Source: Octopus sinensis (lineage: Eukaryota). Taken from it: 64,000 bases of DNA. Within the stretch, counting starts at the first letter, position 1. Each line of letters opens with the position of its first letter. Positions 17,341 through 48,756 of the stretch are shown piece after piece. Position numbers and translations under genes: made by a program. The notes under the pieces were generated by a model. That model was not told the DNA's origin and searched no databases. It saw nothing but the letters and a program-made list of their open reading frames with translations. Location: contig NC_043006.1 of the NCBI RefSeq assembly GCF_006345805.1, forward strand, positions 26,350,001 through 26,414,000, read 5' to 3'.

Positions 17341-18495
17341 GCATATACATACATATATATATATGTATATACATACATATATATATATATATGTATATAC
17401 ATACCTATATAATATATGTATATACATACATATATATATATATATATGTATATACATATATATATATATATATGTATATACATACATATATATATATATA
17501 TATGTATATACATACATATATATATATATATGTATATACATACATATATATTATATATATGTATATACATACATATATATATATATTATGTATATACATA
17601 CATATATATATATATATATGTAATACATACATAATATATATATATATATGTATATACATACATATATATATATATTGTATATACATACATATATATATAT
17701 ATATGTTATACATACATATATATATATATATGTATATACATACATATATATATATATGTATATACATACATATATATATATATGTATATATATTATATAC
17801 ATACATAATATATATATATGTGTGTAATACATACATATATATATGTATATACATACATATATATATATATATATGTATATACATACATATATATATGCAT
17901 ATACATGTATATACATACATATATATATGCATATACATACATATATATATATATATATATATGTATATACATACATATATATATGCATATACATACAATA
18001 TATATATATATATGTATATACATACATTATATATGCATATACATACATATATATATATATATATGTATATACATACATATATATATGCATATACATACAT
18101 ATATAATATATGTATATACATACATATATATAATATATATATATGCAATACATATATATATATATAATACATATATATATATATATGTATATACATACAT
18201 ATATATATATATATATGTATATACATACATATATATATACATACATATACATACATATATATATATACATACATATATAGATATACATATACAACATATA
18301 TATATATATATATATATACATACATATATATATATACATACATATATACACACATATATAAATACATATATATATATACACACATATACATATTTATATA
18401 AATACACACACACACATATATAAATACACACACACACACACATAAATACACACACACACACACAATATATATATATATATACATACATACATACA

Positions 18496-18525
<30 letters not shown>
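14416..18525. repeat. 4.1-kb microsatellite of quasi-palindromic ATATGTATATACATACATAT units
   Basis: Direct inspection. Confidence 0.96.
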
Positions 18526-18526
<1 letters not shown>

Positions 18527-20930
18527 GTTGGTTGAGTCGATTTGCAGCCTTCATCCATTGTCTCATAAGGATCTTCCTCTCTGTTGGAACCTTGTTCCTA
18601 TTTGTTTTGGCCTTTTGCTCTGGTACATATTTCTCGCATATTGCTTGCGCAACAGACATGAAACATTGTAGTTTCATGTCAATGTCTGGTGCTGAGAGAC
18701 ATTTCAGCCAGTTTTCTCTGAGGATCTCTTTTTAGATCAATTTCCAGTCTGCTTTGTGTAAGTTCAGGTCGGAGAGATTTCGGGTGCTTCCTGTAGGCCT
18801 TATGTCTCTAGTTACTTTCATCTCAAACATAGACAGCTCTATTATGTTGTGATCCAAGACTAACGTCGGTATCAGTTTCACATCGTAAATATATGTCCAT
18901 ATTTTTTGTGAAGCACAGATCCAGAATGTTATTTGCCCTAGCTGGTCTCAGTACAGTTTGCTCCATGAATAGGGCCTTGGTGAGGTTGAGCAAGGACTCC
19001 ACCTGTGCTTGCTTGCAATGAGTCATTCCTGAGAGTATGAGACCTTCGGGCAATTTGAAATCACTCATAAGAAATATGGTCACGTGGTGTTCCAGTTTCA
19101 TGAAGATTTCTTTAATTCTTGTGAGGCAATCTTCAAACTTGCCTATGTGGTTTGGAGCATCCTGTGGGCAATATGTATTGCATGTGACTATATTATGTTG
19201 TCTTATGTATACAATTAACGTGTCACATACCAAATTTGAGTATGACAGTAAGACCTGGGGTGTTAGGTCGTCACGGATGTATACAGCATCTCTACCATGG
19301 CTCCTTTCCCTTCAGTCTGTTTGCAGTATGGCATAGTTTGGTATATGTACTTCTGCATCCTCTATATCAGGGCTGAGGTGAGTTACCACGAGTGCCATGC
19401 ATAGGGCTTGATTGCATGCAATAAGATCTCTCAGGAAAGAAATTTTGCTTTTATATGATGCAACAGGCCCCCAATATTTAGTAAAAGTATTGGGATGATG
19501 ACTGTGCAGGGGTTAGGGGAGGCCATCCCATGTCTGTTGACTGCGGTGGTCTTGCACAGTGGTGGGCAAGGTTCCTTGTTTGTGCTTGATGAAGCCAGGT
19601 CAGCTGCTGTACCATCTTTTGCGCCATGTACAAAAAAGACTCTTGCTCAGCTGCTGCGTTGCGCATAACATCTGAAGAGCAAACTTCTTTTGTGAATTTC
19701 TTCCTTGGAGACATTTGTTGTCTTTCCTCAGGGAAGTTTTTCTCTTTAAGGCCCCTATAGTTTTGGTAGGATGTCGGGTGGGCAAACCAGCAGATTTTGC
19801 GGTCTTCCCCATGCCAACATTTGCCTTACATATAAAATTTGCAGGTTCTTGAGTGCCTTCCAAATTTCTTCTTTCCTGTAGGGTTTTGGATGGCATTTGA
19901 TACTCCATGGGGTTTTCTGTTGATTGTTTGGTGGGTTGGGGTTTCGGTTTTGGTTGTTTCATCTTTGCCTTTTCCTTCCTTTCCTTCTTTATTTTTGTGT
20001 TCCATCCTTCCTTTTCTTGTGGTGGGAACCTTTTTTCCTCTGGTTTTCTAATGGGGTGAGGACTCTGTTCCTTTGTAGGACCACTGGCACAGAGGGGCTT
20101 CTAGTTACTGCTACCTTGGCTCCCCTATCCTTTTCTGCCTGATCATTCACAGGGGTGGGTGATTCATTCTTTTGAGGAACTAGTGGATCAAAGAGACTTC
20201 CGGGTTTTGTTTCCTTTTCATCTTTTCCATCCGTATCAGCCTTGCCACAATAGTTTTTGATTATGTCATCCAGAGTGTCACTGTGTGATCTTATGAGTAT
20301 ATAAGATCAAATGAATTCATTCTTCTTCCACTCTATCTGATCAATGGTTCTTTGAAAGCCATTGTTCTTCAGTGCAGCAGTGATGATGATGTTTGGCGGA
20401 TTGCCGCTAGCAATCATCCATGCTCGCAACAGAAGATTTAATTCTTTCTTATCCACTTTGGTGCCATCTTCGTTTTTTAAGCCCAGAGGGGGAGTAGAGG
20501 GTAGAGAGGAAGTGAGAGATAGAGGGAGGTAGAAAAGAAACAGAGGGGGGAATAAGGAAAGAGAGATGGTGATATGAGGAGAGAGGGGGTATGGGGTGAT
20601 AGAGAGACAGAGGAAGGTAGAGGAAGGGAAGAGAGACAGATTGAAGGAAAGGAGGGGAAGAGAGAGGACAGGAAGAGAAAGAGAGACAGAGCGAGGGAGA
20701 GACAGGAAAAGATGAAGGATGTGAGAGAAACGGAGAAACGGAGTGCGAAGAGGGGGGAAAATAAGAAGTATATGAGGGAAGAGGTGAGGTGACAGGAGGA
20801 GAGATAGATGGAAAGGAAAGGAAAGAGAAGTGAGAAAAGAGGAAGATATGAAAGAAGAGAGGAGAGGGAAAGGGAAGAATATATGTAAGAGAGGGAGAGA
20901 GGAAGAGGTAGGCATGAAAGAGAGAGTGGG
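18526..20930 (-). mobile_element. 5' half of a third CR1-group LINE (pyrimidine 5' UTR, ORF1 with CCCH finger, APE)
   Basis: ORF1 ATG ~20467; CKFYM*GKCWHGEDRKICWFAH at ~19770-19840; APE MSDFKLP..PARANNILDLCFT; colinear with 2400-4885; GA tract 20485-20930. Confidence 0.85.
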
Positions 20931-21101
20931 AGCAGTTTTCCAATGCTGGTACATTGAGATAGTTTTTAGACAGCATCCTTTCGTGTGAAATTGTGGTTGA
21001 GACTTCTCCGAATGTCCTCGATGTTTGACAATGCAACAACAAAAATCAATACTGACACCGAAACTAATAAAACAAATAAGCAATATACCACCACTCTTCA
21101 T
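20925..21101 (-). CDS. Candidate host coding exon encoding a signal-peptide-like N-terminus (MKSGGILLICFISFGVSIDFCCC...)
   Basis: Non-repetitive open frame with hydrophobic N-terminus; upstream polypyrimidine+CAG at ~21143-21180; cut off by the GA tract. Confidence 0.3.
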
Positions 21102-21522
21102 TGGTAAAATTTTAATGAAATAAATGCACTTTATTAGATTTACTGAATTCATGCAATGAAAAAATTAAAAGAGAAAATGTTTTAAAGTTTTGGAAATCAG
21201 CTTTTGTATATACTTTAAAATTAATTTGAAACCTCATAAAAAATACTTTGTAATAATAAAAATTAATAATAAAAATTCATAATAATAAAACATGGAGTAC
21301 GGCAGCTTATATCACTGAACTAAGCACATGACATAGTTTCAAGTCTTCAGCCATTGCGATATGTTTCACTCTTTATAAGTGAACGGATTAAATAACAAAA
21401 AAATAAAATAGATTCTACTCATTCTTCTCAACTGAAGTGGGTTAGCCATAAAAATAATTGCTCCTAGAAATAAATCTTGCAAGTAAGGAAAAAAAAAAAA
21501 AGAGGAAAAAAAGAAAACCTAC

Positions 21523-21583
21523 CAGGTGGTCAGTGTAAGTAGCATCTCCCAATTCTTTTTAAGTATCCAATATAAGAAAACTC
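21523..21583 (-). other. Candidate 61-nt internal exon of the minus-strand host gene
   Basis: Acceptor ttctttctgtttcag and donor G|GTAGGT; stays open after the phase-1 exon at 35270-35327 (GVFLYWILKKNWEMLLTLTT). Confidence 0.5.
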
Positions 21584-21764
21584 CTGAAACAGAAAGAATA
21601 TTTTGATCATTATATTAATGCAAATTTTACTATTTTATTCTTTTTTTTTTTTTCTTTTCTGTTGACATGAAAGCAGTGTCTCAATATAACTGCAGTTTAG
21701 TGACTGCAACAAGTAAAAGCAGAAGGTCAAATTTTTATTGTTTTCTTTAAAAAAAAAAAGTATG

Positions 21765-22335
21765 ACTGTGGTTAAAAAATTTGATTCACAACCATGATTC
21801 TAGGTTCAGTTCCACCAGATCACATGTTGAGAAGGCACTCTACATTGACCAATGCCTTATGAGTAAGTCTATTTCTTTACTACCCACAAGGCGCTAAACA
21901 CAGAGAGGACAAACAAGGACAGACAAACGGATTAAGTCAATTATATCGACCTAGTGCGTAACTGGTACTTATTCAATCGACCCCGAAAGGATGAAAGGCA
22001 AAGTCGACCTCAGCGGAATTTGAACTCAGAACGTAACGGCAGACGAAATACAGCTACGCATTTCGCTCGATGTGCTAACGTTTCTGCCAGCTCGCCGCCC
22101 TATGAGTAAATCTGGCAGACAAAAAAAAGTGCAGAAGCCCACCATATGTGTGCACAGGTTTATGTCCCACTACTTGACAACAGGTGCTGGACTGTTTACA
22201 TCTCAGTAAATTAGTGAAAAGAGACTGATAGAACAAGTAGCTTCAACTAAGTATTGGGTTTAGTATGATAGACTAAAACTCTTCAAGGCAGTAGTAGCAC
22301 AGCACAGCTACAATCAGATGATTGAAACAAGCTAA
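21765..22335 (+). mobile_element. Old tRNA-derived SINE (family A) interrupted by a younger SINE
   Basis: Head TGACTGTGGTTAA..GGTTCAGTTCC, tail CAATCAGATGATTGAAACAAG; homologous to 41703-42062 and 49638-50248. Confidence 0.75.
21867..22100 (-). mobile_element. tRNA-derived SINE (family B) with TATGAGTAA target-site duplication
   Basis: GGCGGCGAGCTGGCAGAA..GAGTTCAAATTCC (A/B boxes); central GCCTTTCATCCTTTCGGGGTCGA block resembling the Meta-SINE domain; TSD 21858-21866/22101-22109. Confidence 0.88.
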
Positions 22336-22750
22336 AGAATCTTGTAAATAATAAGATTTTACAACCAGAACCATATACAAGAATTACAGTGAATTCGCTC
22401 TCTTTTTTCAGGCACCTTGCCTATAGACATCAAAAATCATGGATATCCATGCCAAAGGTTGAAGTTACATAATTTTTTCTTCTGCTAGTTTATATATTGT
22501 CTGCTTTGTTAGTCTCTTGCTCTCTTTATCATCAGTATTGCCACTGTTTTTAAGCCTGCAAGACTTTTTTACGACAATGTTCTGTAGCAGCATATTCTTT
22601 CTGACACCATCCTTTACATATTTTCAGCTCAAATCTCACACAACCCCAACTGCGTGCAATTATGTGAGATTCAACTATTTTGATACACGAGGTAACTTTA
22701 GACACCCTATATTCTAAATAAAAGTAACAGGATGTTCAACTACAATATCT

Positions 22751-22945
22751 TTAATTCTTTTGATACCAACCTGCCTGAGACCACTCCTGATTCTTTGATA
22801 CAAACATCTCGTCTAAAAATTATCTAAACTAAAACCTTCCATTAAAATTTCCTTTTAATAACAACAAAGTTATGCTACTAAATACTTATCAAAATTAATT
22901 GAACCAAAGTGTATTTTAACATCAATATAGTAAACTAAAGGTTTA
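22751..22945. mobile_element. Diverged piggyBac-type MITE related to 26008-26228
   Basis: TTAA-TTCTTTTGATACCAACC start and TAGTAAACTAAAGGTTTA end, colinear with the younger copy. Confidence 0.55.
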
Positions 22946-23699
22946 TCACAGTTCAGCTGGGTTAAGTCAGGGACCAAACTACATTAATCAGAAACATGTC
23001 ATACAACTCACACAAGCAAGACAGTTTCACAATCACAATCAAACAAACACACTTTACTGAATCAACAAGAGCCTCAACAATCAACCTGCTAAAAATAGCA
23101 ACCAAATTCCCTCATCACACTCCCACTGTCTGAAAGGAAAGGAAACATTTGACAATGTAACTAAAACGGTATGATGGTCAAGTCAGAATACATTTGATCA
23201 CAACTGTTCAATCAGGGCATACCTAGAACCAAACAACACTTTTCATAAAAAAAGAAGCCAATGAAGTAGTCACTAACTCAGTAATGGCAAACCTATGATG
23301 TCAACAAAAATTTAATACATCTCACAACACCAGTTTCCATCTTTTTAACAACTTACAAACCATTGGTTGATGGAATATTAAGAGAAAAGTATTTACGCTA
23401 AGAAATCCCAAACATTTAACCATCTATGTTCATGTACATATGCACACATACAATGCCTATGTATTCCTCTATTATCCATATACATTCCAGACACCTCACA
23501 CCAGATACATAATTTCACAACAGAATCAAATTTAGATTGGACATCATTTACCAAGACATACATAGTGAATACAGTTCATTCCTCCATTAAAAAAATTTAA
23601 ATATTCAAAATAAATGAGAATTTAAGATCAAACCACAAAACAGTCTCTACTAGAAGCACAAATCACTTTACCATTGCAAATTTAGCACACATAGAAGGC

Positions 23700-25360
23700 G
23701 TCACCACTATTATTATTTACAAATTCAAATTATACTGGTCTACAATCCAAATATAACCTTTTTGACCTACCAGATCTAGTTTTTAAGTTACTGAGTCCTA
23801 TAATCACGTGGACACCTGTTATTTTTGTAACCTAAATTTGAAGGATATTAACTGGAAAAGATCACCAAACACTCGTCTATCCTAATACTGCCTCTGCTAT
23901 TAAACCAGTTCCATACAGTGAAGAGCTTCCTGTTACTGTTTTCAATGTCTTGCTAAGATAACTTTACTCTCAACCAAAGAAGATTCATCACCTGAAGATG
24001 ACACTAGAGATCAAGGCTTTTCAATTGAGACTTTACCTCAGCTATTCTCCCAGGTAGAGCTGAATGATCTAGTTCATGAATTGAACCTCCCAAAAAATTC
24101 TGCAGAACTATTGGCTTCCCAATTGAAAGAGAAGAATCTTCTAGAGAATGGTGTCTGTATAACCTTTTATCAGAATCGGAATGAAGATTTTCTTTCTTTA
24201 CAAAAGAAGAAGAGCTGGTTTACTGCAGAGATATCAGTTGGCTTTTTAATAAACTTGGCATTGAGGAATACAAACCAGAGGAATGGTATCTAAGCGTAGT
24301 TTAAAATGTGTATTGTTGCACAATGGAAATGTGTATAGCTCTGTCCCACTCTGCCATGAAAATATGAAGAAACTAAGTTGGTTTTAGAGAAAATACTGTA
24401 TCATAAGCATAAATGGGTCATCTGCATTGATTTAAAGATGGTGAATTTTCTCATGGGGCAGCAATCTGGTTATACCAAATACCCATGCTTTCTTTGCATG
24501 TGGAACAGTAGAGACTGAGTAAACCACAATATTAAGAAAGACTGGCTGTCTGCAACAAATATGGCTCCATGTAGAGCTGCCAATATATTGGAAGAACCTT
24601 TAGTTGAATGAGATAAGATCATTTCACCCCCTTTGTACATCAAACACAGATTGATCAAGCAATTCATCAAAGCTCTTGACAAAAATGGGGAGTGCTTCAA
24701 GTATATCTGCAGTGTATTTCCAGACTTGGTGATTGAAAAACTTAAAGCAGGGATTTTTGATGGACCACAGATCCTTAAGCTCTTGGGGGACACAAATTTC
24801 ATGAAAACAATGAGCAAAAATGAAGCATCAGCTTGGCTAGCCTTTGCAGAAATAGTGCAAAATTTCCTTGGTGTTAATATGAGCATCTAAATGCATCATC
24901 TTTTTAGTCATCTTGATTGTTTTCCTGAAAATCTGAGATGTTAGCGATGAACAAGGCGAACAATTCCATCAGAACATCAAGGAGATGGAAACTTGGTACC
25001 AAGAACGTTGGGATGCTGTGATGATGGCAAACTATTGCTGGTGTTTAAAACAAGATATTCCTGTTGCTCAACATTCATGGTGCACAAAGAAGCATAAATT
25101 TATTCCTTGAATTTTCAGCCAAAAATCTTTGCCAATGTGCATTTTCAATTTTTATTTCTACTTTGTTTTTTATTACACTCTATTGATTCATATTATATGC
25201 CTCATGTATGAATAAAATACTTACTCTATCAGGTTTAGTCAGAAAACTAGACCTGACAGAGAAAAACTGAAGTTATTTTTGAATTTAGCAGGCAAAAATC
25301 ACTTAGGAATTCATTGAAATATTCCAGGCATGAGACAAAAAAAAATTTTTTTTTTAGTAA
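23700..25360 (+). mobile_element. Decayed DNA transposon, Chapaev-3/CMC-like transposase pseudogene
   Basis: FSQVELNDLVHELNLPKNSAELLASQLKEKNLL; DLKMVNFLMGQQSGYTKYPCFLC; PLYIKHRLIKQFIKALDK..KAGIFDGPQI; SDEQGEQFHQ..YQERW..MMANYCW; superfamily assignment from recall only. Confidence 0.75.
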
Positions 25361-26007
25361 TTATTAATAAATGTGATATGCTTGCCTATGTAATAATTGC
25401 ATATGTCAAAATTTTTTATCTGCACTGAGAGCACAACAGATGTAAATTCAAATGTTAAACTGAAATCTGATAAAAAAAAATAAAATACAAACTCAGAACA
25501 GACAATGGAAAAACTAAGAATCAAAGTAACTTCTTGTACATTTCACTCATCACACATAATCAATTAACAATAATTCATTTACTTTCAAAGTCTAAACTGT
25601 ACGCAATTGTAATTGTTGCTTGAGGCATTAAAACAGCACTAAGCACTCTTCTATGTGAGAAACAAAGTTTAGTCTTTTAGAGAACTTTCTCTCAAAAGAC
25701 TTCCTGTGAGATTATTTTTTGTATTTTATCAAGTGAATTTCTTTGGATTTTTTTCTTCCTTGATTTAACATAATGGTGTTAATACCGCAAGCAATGAGTT
25801 AGAATTTAGTAGCATTTACTAATGTTTTAGGAGAAAATATTTAGTCATATTTTGACATCCTCTATACACACCAACAATGTAATATCAGGATTTACCGATT
25901 CCAAGTGGGAGTGAAGTTATAGTTGACCATGGCATTGATACTTTCATTAGCAAATGGTAAGGATTAAACAAAAAAAAACAAAAAAACAATTTACTGACAT
26001 ATTTTAA

Positions 26008-26228
26008 CCCTTTCGTTACCAACCCGGCTGAAACCGGCTCTAGCTCTTTAGTACAAATGTCTTGTTTTCACAAGTTTTGAATTAAAATCTTCCACCAAAC
26101 CTTAGTCACAATTTATGTTCCTGACACTAGCTTAATGATAACTAAGTTATTTTACTAAATTCTTTGTTATATTTAAAGTAATTGAAAGAAACACAGAGCA
26201 TCTCAAAATAAATACAGTAACAAAAGGG
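26008..26228. mobile_element. piggyBac-type MITE with TTAA target-site duplication
   Basis: TTAA|CCCTTTCGTTAC...GTAACAAAAGGG|TTAA; 11/12 TIR match, 221 bp, non-coding. Confidence 0.9.
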
Positions 26229-27039
26229 TTAAATACAGGGTCTCTGCATATTGGTGGATTTATGAGGGGAGCATTATTATTATAAGAGTAAATAGCATTA
26301 ATTTATCAATGCTGTGAGACAAAACCTTTGAAAGGAGATAAAGGCATATCTTGCAATACTTTTCTTCTCATGGGAGTTGTGCAGCTGACACGTTATAGAG
26401 ACTACTAGAGCACAAATTCAAGTTTGAAACAAGAAACCAATGTCCCAGCATTGATTTCAAACATACATGCAAAAGCACACATCAACTCATATGGTACAGA
26501 CAGAATCTATTGATAGAAACTTAGACATATTGAACTAAATGCAATTCACTGTAATCTCTAGTTTCCTATAGGATTGGGAGATTTATAGAGAAAAAATATA
26601 GGCATTTCAGAGGAGATCTTGATAATTCATGTGTTGTCACTTCTGACGACCATCTGAATATTTCTATAAATGCATTTCTGATATTTGACCTTATCATTCA
26701 CCATCATTAAATTACCAAACTTACATAATTACATATTTGCAGCCATTATCACAAAAATATACTGTATATGGATTACATACATTTATATTGATGAATGCAT
26801 CAATGGTCAACCAGACTAGCTATATTGTAGGTACAAGACTTGGACTGAAAGTAATGCCAAAGTTGACATAACTTTTTTTTTTCTCCATACTAGGTGTGAG
26901 TAGCCATATGGGTCCTTCTTCAAGAACCTGCTCCACACCATTCTCTCATATTAATCCTTTCATCCCCCAAGCACAAAATTGGTCCCACCCCCACCTACCC
27001 CAGGGCTCATAGTCTTTTTTTAACAGTATGGCAACCTAA

Positions 27040-27230
27040 ATAGTGCAGGTGGCGTGATAAAAGCACCCAGCCCACTTTGTTAAGTGGCTGGCATTAGGAA
27101 GGACATCCAGTCATAAAAACCATGCCAAAGCAGATATTGAAGCTTGATGCAGTCCTTGGACACCTAAGTTCCTATCAAAGAATCTAACCCATGCCAGCAT
27201 GGAACATGGTTGTTAACTGATGATGATGAT
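27040..27230 (+). mobile_element. Orphan RTE 3' tail (diverged)
   Basis: GGCATTAGGAAGGACATCCAG..CCCATGCCAGCATGGAA..(GAT)n. Confidence 0.75.
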
Positions 27231-27419
27231 TGTAAATCATTCAAACTGAAAACTGTTATAACTCTTCTTCCTATTCTTCTTCATTGCAGGTAAATAATAG
27301 GTTCCATGCAGAAGCAGTGTACCATCATTGTCAGAAGGCTACAGGTATTTACATAGAGGACACCACAAACATCTATGCAATGTGCATAGATGAACGAAGA
27401 AGCACAAAAAAGTAGAAAT

Positions 27420-28030
27420 CAGCACTGAAGACAAACCATGGAGTCAGAGACCATCAATACTGACCACTGACACGAATTGGCTGCAAGTGGGTGAATTAAG
27501 TTGCACAGACTGATGTCATTATCTCTGAGCTTGCTACATAACTGGACTATGGTCACAATGCATTAAAGAAAATAGACATCAAAAAGTGTGTGCAAAGTAT
27601 ATACCTCAGCAGCTGACTCATGATTTGAAGGAGAAAAGTGTAGATGTCTGCTCAATTCTGCTGGAAATGTTTGAAACAAATGAAAACACGTTTTTTACTG
27701 ATCTGATGACAGGAGATGAAATGAACTGCGGGTATGTCTTTATAGGAAATAGCACCATACTTTCCAAAGTCCAAGTTCAAGGGCCATCAATCAGTATAAA
27801 AAGTTATGTCTTTTCAATGACATGGTCATCATTCTCCTCAATTTCCTAGGACATGGCTGTACTGTGAACAGTAAATGAGACAATAAAAAAACTTTAAAAA
27901 GTCCAAAGGAGGAAAACAGAGGGAACAAGAATCATACAACCCAGATCTGGTGCCCTCTGACTTTCACCTGTTCAGTCCAATGAAGGATAGTCATCATGGA
28001 CATAGAGGAAGTGGTTGTGAAGAAGTGGAA
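27420..28030 (+). mobile_element. Highly decayed mariner transposase remnant
   Basis: CAKYIPQQLT (WVPxxL-like), LMTGDE, YNPDLVPSDFHLF (YSPDLAP-like). Confidence 0.75.
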
Positions 28031-29794
28031 GCTATAATATATTCTAAGCATTTTCAAAAGTAATGTCAGCAACTAGTAAGCAAAAGCTTGCCTGTGAGAT
28101 TACTATTTTCTGGATGTAATCTCAACTGTTTGTGCATATGCCACAGCTGCATTGTTCTAAATATGTTGCTTGTGAAAGGTCACTAACAATTCAGAGTTGA
28201 TGTATTCCTACCCTTACTGGGGAAGTCTAGCCTTTGTGATGAGGTCTTTGATATATTCTATGTGCATTTATATGAAACACCAAAAGAATTTGTAAAAACT
28301 AAAATAGTTTTAGTTTGTATTAAGAATAGGGAGATTGTGTGTTTCTTTGAGATACAAGTGGTTGATTTGGTGCCACTAAACGAGGCTAAGTTATTATATG
28401 CCCATTATGCTTAGTTTTCAGGTCAATAATACTTATGTGCATAAGAGACAGAAATTGTAGAGGTGAGAAAAAGATCAAGGGTGTTTGTAAAGTCAATGGG
28501 TTAGTCAAAAACACAAACTAAAAATTGACCCCAACTCCATGTTTCATTTTATTCTTTGTCAGAAGAAACCTAAAAGGATTCATTCCTTACACATTTTCAT
28601 TATCTTTTTCTGTTGACTACAACTAATGTCACATACATGTCTTTTAAAGCTAATAATACCTAAGTTATTCCTCTTCATACAAGTACAGTAAGCATTGGAG
28701 ACCAATACTGTTTCTGCTCCTCCATTATGGACAATGCTAACAATAATGACGCTCAACACAGGGACAAGACCACACATTTTTTCAAGGTGATATAGTTGAT
28801 CAAACTGACTGGAGTATTTGGTAAGTACCTTATTTCAAAGTACAATGAAAGGATGAAGGGCAAAGTAAACCCCAGCAGGGTTTGGAATCTGAATGCAAAG
28901 GAATACAAACTGACTGGACCATATTCTTCAAAGAATACTTACAGCTACTGATTCACACCAAAAGTGAGATATTAATTTAAAGTTTTGCTCATATGATACT
29001 GTATACTCTTTAAAACATCAACTTAACAATGAATATAAAATATTTTATTGCCACTCCTTTTTGGTTAGGTCAATGTAGTTTCAAAAACACCTATTTCAAG
29101 ACCTACAAAAAATTTTGTAGGCCAAGTATTTTTTTTTTACTAGTAACTCACCAACTAATGCATTACTTATGAAAAAAAAAATAATTTCAGGACATTTTCA
29201 CTAACATTGATCAAATTGTAGTAACATTTGAAGCCTCAACAAGCTATGTATCAATGATCTAACAGCAAATAAACCATCTGAACATCAATTTGCTGCTGAA
29301 AATACTGCTCTTCTTACAGTGTCTTTATACTTAATCACTGCTGATCAAATGAAGAACACAAATCTACACTGCAAATAACACCTGTTTCAAAACAAAATAT
29401 TGAAGCTTAATACTGTTTTGGACTGACCTAATAAAATGCTATCTACTCTTATAAAAAAAAAAAGGAAAAAAACAAACAAAATCTTTGTTCAGGAAAATGA
29501 AAGTTGGAATTTTGAAATATAAAAAAACACTGCATTGAAATGTAGATGCAATTTTTACTTTGTGTCCACTTTCAACTTTTGTTATGTTTTTTTAACAGCA
29601 AACAAACATTAAATGTATTTCTTCAGAAACAATTTAAAAAAAAACATTTTGTGTAATAAGTGTATGCTGAGTTACATAAATGACATGTATTACTTTTGGC
29701 AGAAGCTAATTCCTGGCGACTATTGGAGGTTTCCAACTAAACCAGCTTTGCCAGATTTCTAGCACTAACTTTCACGCAAAATCATGTACTAAAG

Positions 29795-30195
29795 ATCTTT
29801 ACTTTTATTTTTACATTCCAGTCAGTGGTCTGCAGTCATGCTGAGATATTACCTTGAAGGGTTTTAGCTAAACAAGTCACCTCTAAAATTTATTTTCTAA
29901 AAATTTGGTACTTATTCTATCAATCGCTTTTGCCAAAACATTAAGTTATATATTCATAAACAAACCAACACCAGTTGTCAAGCAGTGATGGGGGTAGGGG
30001 GTAAATACAAACACACACACACACACATGATGGGCTTCAACACAGTTTTCTTCAACCAAATTAATTCAGAAGAGATTGGTAGACCTAGGGATATAATAGA
30101 AGACACTTACCCCAGTTGCCATGTAGAAGCAATGAACCCAAAATTATGTAATTGCAAAGCAAGCTTCTAAACCTCACAACCAAGCCTGCACCTAC
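29795..30195 (-). mobile_element. tRNA-derived SINE family A (diverged)
   Basis: Reverse complement of the 41703-42062/49638-50248 family, with internal (CA)n. Confidence 0.7.
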
Positions 30196-33100
30196 GTTCA
30201 TCTAAATTACAATCTGTCAACTTATCTTTACCAATTCCACATTAAAGAGAAGTAGAACTGTTGAATAGACACTTCATCACAAACTAAAACTCATGCAAGA
30301 ACTAGTTGAAAAATCCCTTTTGAACTGAATTACTGGCAATTTATGACAGATATTACTTTTCAGTTAAGGAAACAATGTAAAATCCTTTGCCAAAAAGAAA
30401 AATACATTTGCTAGGTTAACAGATACTTGCAACTCACCATTTAAAATTTATCCATAAAAGTTGAGAAAACTTATGCACAAATAATCAATAAGAAAATTGA
30501 ACATGGAAACATTGAGGCAAAATAGTATTTTGTACAGCTAGCAACCCATACGTCCCATGCCTGTTAAATGCAAATTAATGAAATAAATGTTTAATTGATG
30601 GAAGTTCAACTTAAATATTTGTCCATTATCTCAAATCAATTGTACTTCATTAGATCTGTAAACTGGAGAATGTGGACGGAATTGTGCACTTGACTAGAGT
30701 TTCTAGTCAGTGAGTCTGCTTGGAGACATCAAACACCCAGTTCCATAACTTATTAATTTGGCTGCTACATGGAATAAGTCAAATTCTTAAAATACTTTCT
30801 TGCTGGTTTGTAAACAATTCTATAAAGGCATCATGTATGAATTCATAACTTAAGACCATGTAGCCGAGAAGTTCACTTCCCAACCACTCAAAAAGCTGAC
30901 CAAAGCCTTTTGAATGGAATTTGCTTAACAAAAATTGAAAGGCTCGTTATATATATATTTTTGTACATTTGTATCTCATTGACTTGACATTGGGTAATAG
31001 TTGTAAATGAACCTCACCGTCATGGGAAGTATTATCTTAAGTGAAAATGGATGAGGGTTGGCAACAAGAACATTCAGCTATAATAATAAAAAATCTTCCA
31101 GCAACTCTCTGATGACCCATGAAAGCATGGAAAACTAAGTTTGAACTGGTAAGACACTGCAGGTGTTATTTCATATTCACATAAGGTACATTAATCATAA
31201 AAGACTTGGGGATTACTTAGATTTTTATGAAGATTTTGACTCCAGTACTTTTACCATAGATTTTAAAATTCAAATCTTGACAGGAATACCAACTTCAAAC
31301 GCAATAAAAAAAAAACAACCAATTAAGTCATATTTATAGCAAATAAATGGAAAAATATCTTAGAAAACTAGGAAAGAAATCAATGAAACATTTTCCATTA
31401 ATCTTCCAATATTTCTATTGTAAGTATGAAAACTGAACAGATAAAAACAGTTACAACACGAAACAAACAATTCACTGTTATATACTGAAAATATTTTTTT
31501 AAAAGGGCACCGTAATGAAGTATGTTACTGCCTAAATAACTAAAATAATACATTAACAAGTGAAGGAACTCCTATATTTCTTTTTAATTGACCTTTCAAA
31601 AACAATCTGAAACTAGTAACACAAAAGAGAAACTCTCACCAATGCTTCTGAACAAAACATATGGAAATCTGTACCAACATATTCATTTAAACAACTTTAT
31701 AAAAATTTCGAATGAAAGTAAACTTTTAAACAACTTCGAAAGCATTACATACATCTCAAGAAGCAGAATTTTATATTCTTTAAACTTTAAAATATATAAG
31801 TAATATTTTCAATATTTCAAAAATACAAATAAAATTCTACCATGTATCAAATAAGTTTCATAGCCATCTTTAAAACTCCTAAAAAAATTAAAATTATCAT
31901 CATTAAGTCAGCGGCACGATTAAGAGCAAATCAAGTATGATTACAAACAGATCGCAGTTAATGCACAAGAGAATGTATAAGCATTTAGTTTAGAATCCAT
32001 GTTATTTAATTAAAAGCAAATTTTTTTTAGACTTTTATCCCTCGAGAAAATGTAATTATAATATATGTAATAGTATTAGTTGTAGTGTTGATCATATTTA
32101 GAGTTGTAAGTATAGTTCCTGTTGAGTGTTACAAGTAGTTGTCAAGTTGTTAATGACAATGTAGCAGCAATCTAAATGCTTCCAACTTCGTGATGGTAAA
32201 TTGTGCTGGCACCAACACGATTTAAGTCATGGATAAAGCTGTCGCTGATGTCAGTTTTTTTTTTTTCTTTCTAGAATGAATATATTTGATGAATTTAGAC
32301 AATTATTTTGTTTTATTTCTTACATTTAAAATATCAGAGATGAGAAAAGACTGACCATCCTCTTTTCTACTCATTATATCAGTTCTCGTTGTAATGAAAT
32401 CAGTTCTACATTTTCTTAATGATAAATAAAAAATGGGGGAAAAAACGATGTTTTTAGCATAACTTTATTAAATATTAAATTCGAAACAGAAAAACTGAAT
32501 AAAAAATTTAAAATGTATTAATATCAAATAGTTATTTAGCAATAAAATATTAAAAATAGGTTTTCAGTATAACATACGATTAAACGTCGAGAAAATCTAG
32601 TATCAATTTTAATAAAGCTCATAAAAACTGAAAAATATTATTCAAAGTTTTAACAATTTAAATACAAAAGAAATTTCAGATAGATTTAAGAATATATGAT
32701 TTTAATAATGCCCTAAACATTAATTTCTTGCCCTTATATAATAAATATTATAAACAACAAAAATCACCATAATAAGATTTGATCATTTTAAATGCAATGT
32801 CAGTAATTTGTTAACTTTAATCTGATAAATAACCTATTTTTATACGAAGGCAATTAAAAAAAAATGAGTGCAATTTGATCTCACTTGAAGCATGTCAAAG
32901 GATTAGAAAAACATTGATTTCAATATATTTTAAAATGAAGTCTCGTTTTCTTTCAACCGAAGCAGAATATAAAAATGTTGATTAAATATACAAACGAAAC
33001 GCAAAAAGAACCCAACTACTACAGCTTAACTGTTATCCACACAATAAGTTTCAATATCAGTTTATGTCTCCGTGTGTCATTAAAAAATATGTCACCGATT

Positions 33101-35269
33101 TTAAGTGATATATATACCACAATATATCGCAAACTGTAGCACCTTGTTAAACCTTTACATTTCAATGATTCAATTAGGAGAACCTAGCCGAATGTAACTT
33201 AAAGAGTAAACACACAGCAACATAAACAGACTAAAAATAAAATAAACTGATTAACTGGTCGTCTAAGTGTCTATAAAAATCCATTCAGAATTCATTTACA
33301 GAATATCTCTAAGTACTCGTCGCAATACCATATCTAACAGAAATTGAACTAATTAAAAGGCGTATTCTGTCCTGAATATACAAATCTACTAAAATAATTG
33401 CAAATCTTAAAATTTTCTAACAAGGGCCTTAAGCAACACATTCTACATACAACCTTCAGAAAATTTAAGGTCAACAAATTAAATTTAGTTAAGATTTATT
33501 ATAAATAAATATCTGAAAATCAATAGAAATGAATTGGGTAAAAAAAAATATCTGTTTGGTTTATTTCGCAAAATTAAAAAATAAAACAATTTCAATCAAA
33601 ACTGTATGCACACAAGCCCTACTTGAGAATAATTGATTATTCTGTATATTTATAAATACAACAGCTGTTAAATTACATTATTTAACAAGAAATATTAAAA
33701 TATTATACAGCATCATGCTTAGAATACGAACTAAGAAGTTCATTAAAAATGCCTAACAAGAATTAAAGAAAACAATGTGATCAACAGAATAAGAGACAAA
33801 ACATCAATTATGTAACTAAATAGATTAATCTTTAACAGAGTAAATCAACTTGTCAAAATATTTTGAAATTCTTACAAGAACGCGTGTAAATTAAATATTT
33901 TTTCCAATCTGATACAAAAAAAAAGGGGTATGACAACAGTTAAGTTGACAAACATCAATACGATGCTTTATTTAAACAATATAACTATAAAGTATTACTT
34001 ATACTCGATATGTAAACTGACATCGCTAATAATGAGTGAATGTCAAGACAGCGAAGATAACTTCCTCACCCCTCAACTAATTTACACGTCACTGTCAATT
34101 GATATAATTATACGACACACGAATGTTAAGACACTTTTAATTTTATAAACATATGCAATAAACAATTATGAATTATTTCCTTTGAATGTACTGACTTCCG
34201 TTAAAATGTCAACCAACATATATTCAGAAGCAAGATGTGTTTACTTCGATCTTCATAAATTTCCATTTTTAAAATTAATACAATTATCATATCAAGCAAT
34301 AAAATTTACAATTCAACAATATAATTGTTTACAGAATCAAAGTCATAAGATATCAGTAACTAGATGACAGGATCTGAAATATTTTTCTCTCCTTCTCTCT
34401 CATCATGTTAAAGTGAGCTCTGATTATAACCAAAGAACTTTGACCATGACTGACGATTAACTTGTACAATAATAAAGTTCTACAAACGAAACTAAATAAA
34501 TGTAGAAAAATCTGTGTTGGGTAAAGAGAATCTAACAATAGTTATAATGGTACTTAAAAGAAATTAACCATATAAATGCGTTGCCAATCTCGATCTGTCT
34601 CTCTCCCTCTCTTCCATACATACAGATTTCTCTATATGCCTGTATCCTTTCTAAATATAATTGTTGAACAGTCAAGCTTCTCACAAAAATTTAGGTCACA
34701 ACACGAAGTAGACACATCGCCATCTCTTACTCATACTACTACTACTACTACTTTCAAAACTGCTACTATTTACACGGCAACTAACAACTACTAACAACGT
34801 CGTACCATACTATATACTACCAAACAAATTAGTCGTTTTCCAGTCTTTCAGTGCAAGACCTGTTGAAAGGGATACAAGAATATCAAATGGCAAAACAAAC
34901 CTAATGATATCGAATTCTTTTATTATGCTTATAGCATTTATTTCACTCCCTTGTCAGTGTAGACACATGTATATTATATAAAGCGCAAATAAAACGCACA
35001 AAAGGAGCGGTGATTATTCATATATAATATATACGGTGACTAAATATGATGTATTTTATTCGATTAACACAAAATAAAACTGAATTTTAGAAAGAAAAAT
35101 ACAGAAATTAACTAATTCGACGAAAACGACTGTTCTGGTTTTTATATCTACCACTACATACTAATCGCTTATTAAGGCATCATCACAGGGAGATAGAAGT
35201 AGCTCGTGGTTTTCTAAAGTGTAGTACCTCAGCAGATTTAGGTGAAATAAATGATAAGGGCCGACTCAC

Positions 35270-45200: not shown

Positions 45201-46366
45201 AATAATTTTCTCATAGTCATTCAGAAAAGGAGAGAATGCTTGTGATCCACTCATCTTAGACTCAGTTGTGACAGCTACATCTATATCACATGTCCTGAGG
45301 TCATCCAGAAAACAAGCCTGTTTCCATTTTGACCCCAGTTCATACACATTTATGCACCCTCACTTAATCATTTTTGTAAAATGAAAGGAAAGAGATTACT
45401 CACATTTTCAGTTTGGGGACGGGCTGTACAAATTCGCCTACCTCCCCGTTCTTTTCTTTATCAGGTTCGCTGCTGGCTTTTCCTGGGTGTGGCAGTCGAG
45501 CTTATAATATATTTACACTCCGCCACTTCAGCGGTTATGTCTCTTATGTCTTCCAGATACCTCACCTTCATATCTGTAAACAGTTTCTCATTTATTTTTG
45601 CATAGCTAACATCTGTCCATGTTTCTTTCATTACCCTAAACACTCGTGTGTCATGGTGTGTTCTAATGACTCTTGCTAACGGCTCATTCTTTTCCTGGAA
45701 CCCTATAGTTTTTACTTGTAGTTTGGGGAAGGGTTTGACAAATAGCCTTGCCATGGGCTTGGACTGGGGAGTTGGGCTTTGTGTGTCCATGTGTTTTGTG
45801 GGGTTTTTTTGTGGTGGTGGTGGGAATCAGGGACTTGTGCCTTCTTACACTTATCAGTCACTGTTGTAACCTCCATCTCCTCGGTAGTTTGGTTCTTTTC
45901 TTCTGTTGTTCTCTCCTCCTTCCCTTCTGCTGCACTCTCTGGTCTGTCTGTCTGTTTGCAGCTTTTTGGGGAGGAGCCTCATTCTCATTTTTCTTTTTTG
46001 TACACATGGAGCGGACATGGCTCTTCTCTCCACACTTGAAGCATTAGGGCCTATGTCCCTTCACAGCCACTCGCATTGTCAGCCCCTCCCCCACAAACAC
46101 TCTATTGGATAAATTTTCCAGAGTTTGGTTCACCGTTTGAATTACCATCTCGAGTGTCTGGCCTCACCAGTTCACAGCATCCCTCCTCTTCATTTGCAGG
46201 ATGGATGCTAATTCTTCAATGTCATACGACTGCCACTGCCACCCACATCATTTCATAACCAGCTGGTATATCTCCTACCATAACTTTCAGTTCTGCAGCC
46301 CAAGTATGTGGGTAGCAGCATAATTTTGTCGTTTTTTAGTATCTTTGTTGGCACTTCTTTTGCTAC

Positions 46367-46670
46367 TACAGTTCTATATCTAAGAGATGAGGAATTATAT
46401 TATTATTAAGGTCATTGCCTGGAATTGAACTAGAAATCTTGGGGTTAGTAGCCCACGCTCTTAACCACTACGCCATATACCCATGGGCATACGGCGTAGT
46501 GCTTATTAATAACAATAATAATAACATCAAAAAAAATAATACCTTAGGAACGAGAACCCAGGTTCAAAATTTCTCCAAGACACCTGATGAAGGCTGGAGG
46601 GTATATCAGCTGAAACATTGAGTTAACAACAAACAAGATGAGGACAAATATCCATCAAATGTAAATAAAG
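46367..46670. mobile_element. 304-bp insert with inverted tRNA-like heads and a hammerhead-like motif, inside Tx1 ORF1
   Basis: Flanked by TTCTTTTGCTAC (46355-46366) and TTCTTTTGTTAC (46671-46682); A box TGGCGTAGTGG and B box GTTCAATTCC on minus; CTGATGA..GAAA on plus. Confidence 0.75.
46579..46624 (+). ncRNA. Minimal type-I hammerhead-ribozyme-like motif (degenerate)
   Basis: GACAC-CTGATGA-a-GGCTG[10 nt]CAGCT-GAAA-CATT-GAGTT. Confidence 0.6.
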
Positions 46671-47399
46671 TTCTTTTGTTACGTGAGCCATTCAATGGTT
46701 GTGCTTTGCGTTCCACGGCTGATGTAGCATACTTTATTCCACATTGGTGCCATGTACCTCTCCATCACTTCGTGTTTTGCCTCCATAATATTTTTCTGTT
46801 ATGTTGTATATCTTATATACAACTATATGGGCATTAATTGCCTGCACTGTTTCTGGGGGCAGCAACAGTTTTGTGTCACCGCTACTTTTTTTTATTAAGT
46901 TCCTAAACTTAAACAACTGTTCCGTCCGGACCTCTAATTCTGAAACGTTCGCTCCTACCGTGGCTGAGAAGCTGAGTTTCCTTAGTTCTTCCTTGCGGCA
47001 TCCTTTCCCATCTCAGGAAACTCCTTACAGGATTCAATATTAAGATCCATTGCAAATTTTTTTTACGAAACTTTGTCACAAATGACCAACAATAACATAA
47101 ATGCGATAACCAGGAATGGTTAACACAAAACAGTTCAATAGCAAAAGAATATTTTCAGGAATAAAAATTCCAACACAATTTTCTGCCCCAAAGGGTGAAA
47201 ATTACAGTTCCAAAACGAACAGCAGTTCAAATCACAGTAGAAAAATTAAACACAAAATGTAACATACAACAATATACAGGAACGAACTCACACAACATTG
47301 GTAACAGCAAATATCCAAAAATGACAAAGAAAAGGGCATAGCTTGCTAGCTGTAGATGTCTGTCTGCCTTTGAATACATATATATTTCAAGTGAAATAC

Positions 47400-48756
47400 A
47401 TTCACTGATTTTGAAAATAGAAATAATATATTTCTAAATCTCTCAGAGAGATTTATGCAGTAGCAACACGATAAAGTGATAGTACGTTGTCAACTTAATG
47501 TGACAGTCCCATAAAAGGGAAGAACACACCTGAAACATAACACAGCCAAAACTTTGGCATTGTTTGAAGTGGTAGTGCATCTCTTCTTTGTTCCAGACTA
47601 AAAATAGATTTATCTTTCATTCTAGTTACCCTCTATTGACATTTGAAATGGATAACCAAAAATATCATATTCACGTTGTAATGCTTTTCATTTTTTAAAA
47701 AAGGAGAAAATGCTGCAAAGACTAGCAAGAATATTTGTGAAGTTTATGGTGATGATGATGCTGTAGGTGAATCAACTGTTTGAAGGTAGTTTACAAAATT
47801 TAAAACTGGAGAGTTTAGCTTGAAAGATGACAGTCGCAGTGGAAGATCTCTAAATTTGGATGATGTTTTGAATGCAAAAATCAAAGAAAACTCAATTATC
47901 ATGACTCAAGAACTTGCAGAGGGGTTGGAAGTTGCTAAAAGTACGGCTCATGAACACCTAGTGAAGCTAGGATACAGTTCTTGCTATAATGTATGGGTAC
48001 CTCACAAACTCTCAGAAAAGAATTGCTTGGACCAGTATTCTGTTTGTGATGTGCTTGTGAAACGGAATGAAAGCATGCCTTTTTTGAAACAACTTGTGAC
48101 TGGAGATGTAAAATTGAAACAACTTGTGTCTGGAGATGAAAAATTGAAACAACTTGTGTCTGGAGATGAAATGGATTGTGTACGAAAACATAGTGTGAAA
48201 AAGATCCTGGAGATTGTGTAAGGATCCCCCAAAACAGCAACCAAAGATTACTATCCATGCCAAAAGAGCTATGCTTTATGTTTGATAAGATCATAAAGGC
48301 ATTATTTATTATGAGTTTTTCCCACAAAACCAGACCATTAATTCTGATGTGTACTGGCTAGTTTGAACCAAAATCATTCCAACAAGACAATGCCTGACCA
48401 CTTGTGTCTTTGACTACCCAAACAAAGTTACATGAACTTGGTTGGAATCTCTTATCCCATCCCCCATATTCTCCTGATATTGTGCCACCTGACTACTACT
48501 TGTTTTTATTTCTACAGAACTCATTGTGAGGAAAAACATTGAACAATTTAGATGGAGTTAAAATGCATCTAGATAGCCTTTTTCTTCAAAACTAATCAAA
48601 TTTTATGCTAATGGAATATTTAAATTGCCTGATAGATGGGCAAAGTTCATTAATAATAATAGAAATTATTTCATTGATTAAAATTGATTGAAAACTCAAT
48701 TATTTATATCCCTCTTTGCATTTAAAAAAATGCTCAGAACTTTCTGGATAACCTAA
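47400..48756 (+). mobile_element. Mariner (DD34D) transposase pseudogene with probable right TIR
   Basis: LKDDSRSGR, WVPHKLSE, LVTGD, QQDNA, HPPYSPDIVPPDYYLF; terminal CTCAGAACTTTCTGGATAACCTAAT. Confidence 0.9.

Follow-up and report, generated by a model that had tools for sequence, protein, structure and literature searches.

A 304-bp insert in a 64,000-nucleotide stretch of the Octopus sinensis genome (NC_043006.1, positions 26,350,001 to 26,414,000, forward strand; the whole of this stretch is called the window here) is almost certainly a damaged head-to-head pair of pseudo-long terminal repeats (pLTRs) from a decayed Penelope-like element (PLE) of the Penelope/Poseidon type. The insert shares its anatomy with a Poseidon-type element of the genome that bears a reverse transcriptase (RT), and was therefore identified as a pLTR pair. 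Chance was dismissed because exact 20-mers from the family gave between 5,293 and 7,780 matches, versus 0 in reversed controls. The copy in the window is dead, and as an insertion product it is ordinary for PLEs; the promoter is unusual, since the pLTR opens with a tRNA-derived head. The best explanation as a whole, to which we assign a probability of roughly 0.7, is a PLE pLTR pair in which this head acts as the promoter and which was inserted by priming at both ends. What appears new is a tRNA A/B-box head inside the pLTR of an autonomous PLE, while inverted pLTR pairs, minimal hammerhead ribozymes and junction palindromes were known.

Structure of the insert

The initial annotation, made by a model from the window's letters, had described the 304-bp insert with a 12-bp duplication on its flanks (11 of 12 positions identical), and both are present. 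A paralog of the host long interspersed nuclear element (LINE), at G000:C9752, aligns to the two flanks near-contiguously and without the insert, and the duplication is therefore a true target-site duplication (TSD). The host is a minus-strand LINE, with the insert on the upstream side of its decayed APE and RT frames, as identified with Pfam. It had been named as ORF1 of a Tx1 element; the position upstream of the APE/RT remnants held, but the three upstream open reading frames (ORFs) scanned had no Pfam match above the cut-off. The parts of the insert are as follows.

46355–46366, no strand: left copy of the TSD (12 bp), from the duplication match and the empty-site paralog.
46367–46407, minus strand: 3′ end of the minus arm, the final 41 nt of the pLTR core, among them the 30–35-nt tail (outer RT start site); core positions 134–175, 90% identity.
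46409–46483, minus strand: complete tRNA-derived head of the minus arm, with A box (46465–46475), anticodon-like loop of 7 nt (46445–46451) and B box (46421–46430); 92% to the family head, weak Rfam tRNA match; a likely type-2 promoter of RNA polymerase III.
46465–46501, no strand: head-to-head junction palindrome, its centre being a short imperfect palindrome, which the autonomous element already has right upstream of its head.
46484–46505, plus strand: head stub of the plus arm, the first ~20 nt, then a jump to the AAT spacer; similar stubs occur in loci L006, L009, L023, L026, L028 and L052.
46505–46527, plus strand: (AAT/AAC)n spacer, forming the 5′ leader that separates the head from the ORF start, read from the sequence.
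46528–46670, plus strand: pLTR core of the plus arm, equivalent to the opening ~40 codons of the Poseidon ORF; it stops at the inner RT start site and has no tail; core 5–141, 93% identity.
46580–46623, plus strand: minimal type I hammerhead, with stem I (46580–83/46620–23), CUGAUGA (46584–90), a bulged A, stem II (46592–96/46607–11) and GAAA (46612–15).
46671–46682, no strand: right copy of the TSD, from the duplication match.

The two arms have suffered reciprocal deletions: the minus arm keeps head and tail without the core (core 1–133 is deleted, and that arm's hammerhead with it), and the plus arm keeps the core, in which the ORF start codon is mutated, without most of the head. The minus-strand head, with its boxes and 7-nt loop, and the junction palindrome had been placed correctly at the outset. 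The second copy had been recognized only as the start of a head, and 46367–46407, the tail end of a second arm in inverted orientation, was overlooked.

The family in the genome

A search of the genome gave 87 matches from the 40 scored of 5,186 candidates, and the translated core used as query gave 35,170 candidates. The family unit consists of a 76-nt tRNA-like head, the (AAT/AAC)n spacer and a 175-nt core that contains the hammerhead and ends in the tail. Exact 20-mers were counted 7,780 times for the core, 5,293 times for the head and 896 times ~45 nt upstream of the head. From the core count and the divergence of the arms (4.1% at non-CpG and 24% at CpG sites), their number was computed as at least ~18,000; in all, ~18,000–35,000 arms are estimated, compared with a few hundred ORF-bearing copies; this is a ~50-fold excess of pLTR-only arms.

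Head-to-head pairs numbered 53 in 88 loci, a set biased toward pairs by the query used first, and inverted pairs also made up 16 of the 23 loci picked by the hammerhead motif alone, the other 7 being single arms. The tail was found on exactly one arm in 49 of the 53 pairs, on neither in 3 and on both in 1. Copies ended at core positions 140–149 or 169–175, i.e., at two sites ~30 nt apart, and the distance from the hammerhead cut to the outer end is 80–86 nt, versus 85–92 nt in the anole element PAc. TSDs of at least 9 bp, with a mode of 12–13, flanked 36 of the 49 one-tailed pairs, versus 1.4% with shuffled flanks, and the target sites of these pairs are 73% AT. Direct tandem arrays of the unit are rare. 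The ends, tails and TSDs of the copies carry the signature of PLEs, which bears out the early proposal that a Penelope RT with a GIY-YIG endonuclease, rather than a LINE, moved the insert. A pair tailed on both arms (L035:1411–2112) has flanks that are inverted repeats of each other, which points to the entire site having been duplicated by fold-back.

The parent element

The genome was queried with an RT motif that we take to be of Poseidon type, and the pattern found one family, with 142 matches versus 3 in the control. Among 30 of these RT-motif loci, the core was present in 23, lying on the same strand downstream of the endonuclease (EN) in 20 and inverted upstream in 12, and the tRNA head was present in 16; RT-bearing loci thus display a partial tandem and inverted arrangement of the pLTR. 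The head begins ~30 nt after the stop codon of the GIY-YIG EN, and in loci selected by the 20-mer right after this stop, the head followed in 27 of 28 and the core in 26 of 28. The core is in frame with the ORF, and the tail runs in frame into it, in L178, L187 and L193 (the exact junction has 128 matches). The core is likewise in frame with a full-length relative, P0020 (847 aa), whose residues 18–846 align across the core-encoded peptide and the ORF. The core encodes the N-terminus of the ORF, and the pLTR both overlaps the ORF start and follows the GIY-YIG stop. The initial annotation had proposed a distinct non-autonomous family joining the head of a short interspersed nuclear element (SINE) to a ribozyme; instead, head, spacer, ribozyme and tail are the pLTR of an autonomous element. 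A SINE2 as an independent element with a LINE-derived 3′ tail was rejected on the same ground, the whole unit being the pLTR of an RT-coding PLE. The predicted co-occurrence of tRNA-derived head and hammerhead was found family-wide, and extends to RT-bearing copies.

A single ORF encodes the RT, with a weak RVT_1 match, and then a C-terminal GIY-YIG domain. It has 391 homologs, with PLE-type domain sets among those listed. The EN has CCHH, and a zinc-finger linker between RT and EN is absent, which fits the definition of Penelope/Poseidon elements (CCHH in the EN, no linker zinc finger before it) in Craig 2021. In an RT tree that contained no named Poseidon reference, the element grouped with P0001/P0017 and then with P0020/P0023, and was split from the genome's Neptune ORFs (100/100). 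All ORF-bearing copies seen were broken, and a full-length copy with a 5′ head was not seen among the loci, which were too short to span one.

Two other candidate partners were rejected: other GIY-YIG families had a core match in 0 of 30 loci and none within 200 kb around 20, and Neptune-type PLEs had one partial core match in 30 loci. A comparison of the 60-aa core frame with longer proteins gave no match, which is weak evidence, and no Poseidon relatives were found in viral contigs. One Neptune-type PLE (L091:1574–5274, L094) keeps its 781-aa RT/EN frame open in at least six loci, is preceded immediately upstream by another ORF, of 479 aa, and bears a 1.5-kb direct repeat of 99% identity; it was probably active recently and apparently has two ORFs.

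The hammerhead ribozyme

The family consensus, built from the genome as the initial annotation had suggested, keeps the CUGAUGA/GAAA core and the stem pairing. It comprises a CUGANGA core, one bulged nucleotide, a G–C first pair in stem II, GAAA, a palindromic 15.2–16.2 and a short stem I, in keeping with the predicted PLE type and with the minimal architecture that Cervera and de la Pena 2014 describe for PLEs, along with opposite-strand pairs 100–700 bp apart. Covariation was followed in 23 distinct motifs drawn from relatives and the genome: stem I positions 1–3, which were not used in selection, are paired in 19–20 of the 23, by 4–5 pair types. The core nucleotides are unbroken in 68 of 101 arms. 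The window hammerhead, with its predicted cut after 46619, differs from the consensus by three substitutions, where two from the minimal form had been counted; its ACGU palindrome is broken, and so is one of the pairs in stem I. The Rfam hammerhead models gave no match; minimal hammerheads lie outside those models.

The family hammerhead is genuinely of the minimal PLE type, and its sequence predicts cleavage only as a dimer or with the help of protein. Enrichment of the cut site was not found among copy ends, where the core pieces beginning a single base ahead of the cut number 3, no more than elsewhere, and RNA-seq read ends showed no pile-up there. Cleavage is probably not needed for pair insertions. 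Elsewhere, the Neptune-type 3′ ends downstream of the EN in L143 and L145 have, by eye, a hammerhead-like core of CUGUAGA or CUGUCGA, not CUGANGA, and further minimal-hammerhead remnants with a short stem II and no RT frame nearby occur in L113, L119, L123, L126, L129, L130 and L136.

The tRNA-derived head and the probable start of the transcript

The window head scores 16.4 bits against the Rfam tRNA model (gathering threshold 29), and ARAGORN makes no call. A callable cloverleaf is absent, the A and B boxes lie at tRNA spacing, and the family consensus keeps the tRNA numbering, with the A box at 8–18 and GTTC at 53–56. The head lies exactly at the 5′ boundary of the pLTR. All 28 loci picked independently by the head belong to this PLE family, so that no free SINE donor was seen. 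Single-arm copies started between −6 and +4 of tRNA position 1 in 4 of 4 hammerhead-picked cases and in 4 of 10 head-picked cases, counted without L231 and L246, which carry or may carry inverted stubs; for the latter clustering, a hand calculation with a crude uniform null gave P ~4e-5. The 20-mer count falls about six-fold at the head start, from 5,293 to 896, which is as much as it falls across the following kilobase, up to the RT motif, whose count of 142 comes from a different type of pattern. Taken together, these features of the sequence make it likely that the head is a functional promoter of the element.

As a trait of the whole clade the head was rejected: A and B boxes upstream of the hammerhead were found in 0 of 15 testable relatives (28–48% identity, among 80 metagenome loci), and ARAGORN made 0 tRNA calls in the 60 scanned of these 80 loci. 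One unlinked A/B-box repeat lies near L271. A PLE with a tRNA A/B-box head in its pLTR was not found in the literature searched, for which PMC7229834, PMC8490949 and PMC13282606 were also consulted; Repbase and Dfam lay outside this search and may list the family. In L048:1897–1985, A>G and T>C differences reach 5–20% in RNA reads, versus ~0.3–3% in the largest contig run. A-to-I editing of inverted-pair hairpins would give such differences, though A>T and C>T are raised too and, the runs bearing different organism labels, species variants are possible.

The absence of RNA polymerase III terminators

While a terminator of RNA polymerase III (Pol III) was sought after the tail, it was noticed that the 2,451-nt majority sense strand contains 0 runs of four T (T4). 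The expectation is 4.3 under a mononucleotide null (P 0.005) and 3.2 under a synonymous-codon null (P 0.018); the 52 relatives, out of 80, with a similar T content lead one to expect 6.9 (negative binomial P 0.013). In Neptune ORFs from this genome, such runs number 9 and 10. A Poseidon relative in L280:3501–5406 has 0 T4 over a 1.9-kb ORF, a T-rich 3′ untranslated region (UTR) and no tRNA head.

Proposed mechanism and its alternatives

The fall in copy 5′ ends at the tRNA start and the lack of T4 suggest, at about even odds, that Pol III transcribes the full 2.45-kb element. The resulting RNA would be uncapped, and its translation could rely on the (AAT/AAC)n leader or on a circle, cut by the hammerhead and re-ligated, in which start codon and ORF are reunited. 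As biochemistry on the anole Poseidon element suggests, the RT/EN protein would nick both strands of AT-rich DNA and prime cDNA at both ends. At each end the RT would use an internal start site, the outer (tail) one in one case and the inner one in the other, and a start inside the 5′ pLTR of the transcript would give a short cDNA that runs out where the RNA begins, at the tRNA start. The palindrome or TAA microhomologies would then serve as the place where the two cDNAs are joined head-to-head. Short cDNAs of this kind would explain the ~50-fold excess of short pairs over ORF-bearing copies; internal priming in the 5′ repeat would shed tens of thousands of inverted pairs, a SINE born inside the element that mobilizes it. 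The full proposal, an autonomous protein-coding retrotransposon promoted by a captured tRNA gene, transcribed by Pol III from end to end, purged of terminators in its ORF, translated independently of a cap and shedding SINE-like pairs, is put forward tentatively.

Several observations weigh against parts of this account. An RNA made by Pol III, lacking a cap, serves poorly as an mRNA. The absence of T4 is a single evolutionary observation; it is not significant under a dinucleotide shuffle (2.2 expected, P 0.072), 3 of 80 relatives are also T4-free over 0.9–1.9 kb without having the head, and in the ORF's first 500 nt the majority sequence is only 3–6 copies deep. In the head-picked set, 6 of the 10 single-arm copies reach upstream of the head. 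Palindromes mark the 5′ boundaries of pLTRs in rotifer PLEs that have motifs of RNA polymerase II (Pol II) type, so that the 5′ pile-up could reflect the palindrome. RNA-seq runs, whose organism label differs from that of the best DNA source, cover the core equally on both strands without sharp starts or ends, the head being masked. Arms at one locus have slightly more variants in common (26) than arms at different loci (9.6), yet a 3-nt indel differs between the arms in 8 of 45 scorable pairs.

It is doubtful, but worth considering, that the two roles are split, with Pol III transcribing from the head to make RT templates only and the protein coming from Pol II read-through; the pLTR would then be a built-in SINE. 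This would account for the ~50-fold excess of pLTR-only arms and for the 5′ pile-up at the tRNA start, and does not require cap-independent translation. With no terminator after the tail, however, a discrete short Pol III RNA is not predicted, and all that sets the idea apart from the favored pLTR-pair explanation is where the protein comes from.

An ordinary Pol II Penelope is unlikely. Here a fragment of a tRNA-SINE would have landed in the 3′ UTR of the master copy and been carried passively, the T4 absence would be chance, and the short copies would be 5′ truncations with ends piling up at the palindrome or the tRNA fold. The PLE promoters described are of Pol II type, palindromic junctions and opposite-strand hammerhead pairs 100–700 bp apart are known in PLEs, the dinucleotide null leaves the T4 absence insignificant, and the element in L280 is T4-free yet headless. 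Against it stand the head's position exactly at the pLTR 5′ boundary, the membership of all head-picked loci in the family without a free SINE donor, and P ≤ 0.02 under three of four nulls.

That the insert represents an independent non-autonomous SINE or retrozyme, amplifying from its own short copies with a borrowed Penelope enzyme like schistosome Sm-alpha, is highly improbable: short copies do far outnumber RT copies, and Sm-alpha does combine Pol III and a hammerhead in a non-coding element, but all parts are common, in the same order and at ~85–95%, to the RT-bearing element, reads past the tail show no conserved sequence (agreement 0.41–0.46), the short copies end at the tail, without the downstream ORF sequence needed for binding in anole PAc, and direct tandem arrays are seldom seen.

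An autonomous retrotransposon is presumed to depend on Pol II (Kojima 2024). If the explanation by a tRNA-promoted PLE is true, RNA of a protein-coding retroelement made by Pol III would be a natural test case for the translation of uncapped Pol III transcripts, and would bear on what the PLE hammerhead is for. Whichever polymerase is used, the 49 of 53 pairs tailed on one arm put in vivo numbers to the model in which PLEs insert by priming at two sites and on two strands. A possible route is also offered for the origin of hammerhead-bearing SINE-like repeats, e.g., Sm-alpha. Many thousands of ~200-bp inverted repeats in the genome would fold into double-stranded RNA hairpins once transcribed, and annotation would likely call the copies "SINE", overlooking the parent element.

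Neighbouring elements

In the window at 47690–48500, decayed plus-strand frames with a short tandem duplication resemble what we take to be a mariner-type transposase. In L029:1–1300, a family copy adjoins a decayed ORF that resembles, presumably, the N-termini of R4/Dong-type LINEs.

Comparison with known systems

An inverted 5′ copy, a one-sided tail of 30–40 bp and junction palindromes are hallmarks of PLEs (Craig 2021, Arkhipova 2013), and Frangieh 2024 (PMC11167929) reported that both strands are cut and extended, and that two internal RT start sites bound the tail. The family resembles anole PAc (PMC11167929) and rotifer Pen2a (PMC3846280) in the single ORF with RT and C-terminal GIY-YIG, the pLTR over the ORF start and the minimal hammerhead, as well as in the two RT start sites, the 30–40-nt tail at one end, the inverted 5′ pLTR, the junction palindrome and the AT-rich TSD targets. 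It differs from these elements, with their Pol II motifs, in the tRNA-derived A/B-box head that opens its pLTR, in its T4-free sense strand and in its extreme excess of pLTR-only pairs.

Metazoan non-LTR retrozymes (PMC7229834; bioRxiv 10.64898/2026.07.22.740005) are likewise pLTR-related, hammerhead-bearing, non-coding, PLE-dependent copies. They are direct tandem repeats that give circular RNAs, whereas the family occurs mostly as inverted pairs or single arms with a TSD and a tRNA head; direct tandem hammerhead units, which define retrozymes, were not found among the 23 hammerhead-picked loci (16 inverted pairs, 7 single arms). The portion consulted of the bioRxiv report links tandem retrozymes to pLTRs and does not mention a tRNA head. 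The schistosome repeats Sm-alpha and Sj-alpha (reviewed in PMC6765202) combine, as the family probably does, a Pol III-type promoter and a hammerhead in a short repeat, but are described as non-coding, often tandem and SINE-like, whereas the family unit belongs to a PLE that codes for protein, and occurs as inverted pairs. The TRIMp3 elements Helenus, Ajax and Cassandra (Kojima 2024, PMC10886601) have, as the family probably does, a Pol III promoter derived from a small RNA in their terminal repeat. They are non-autonomous LTR elements, and their autonomous partners, according to Kojima 2024, must use Pol II; in the octopus family, by contrast, the head sits in the autonomous element's own repeat.
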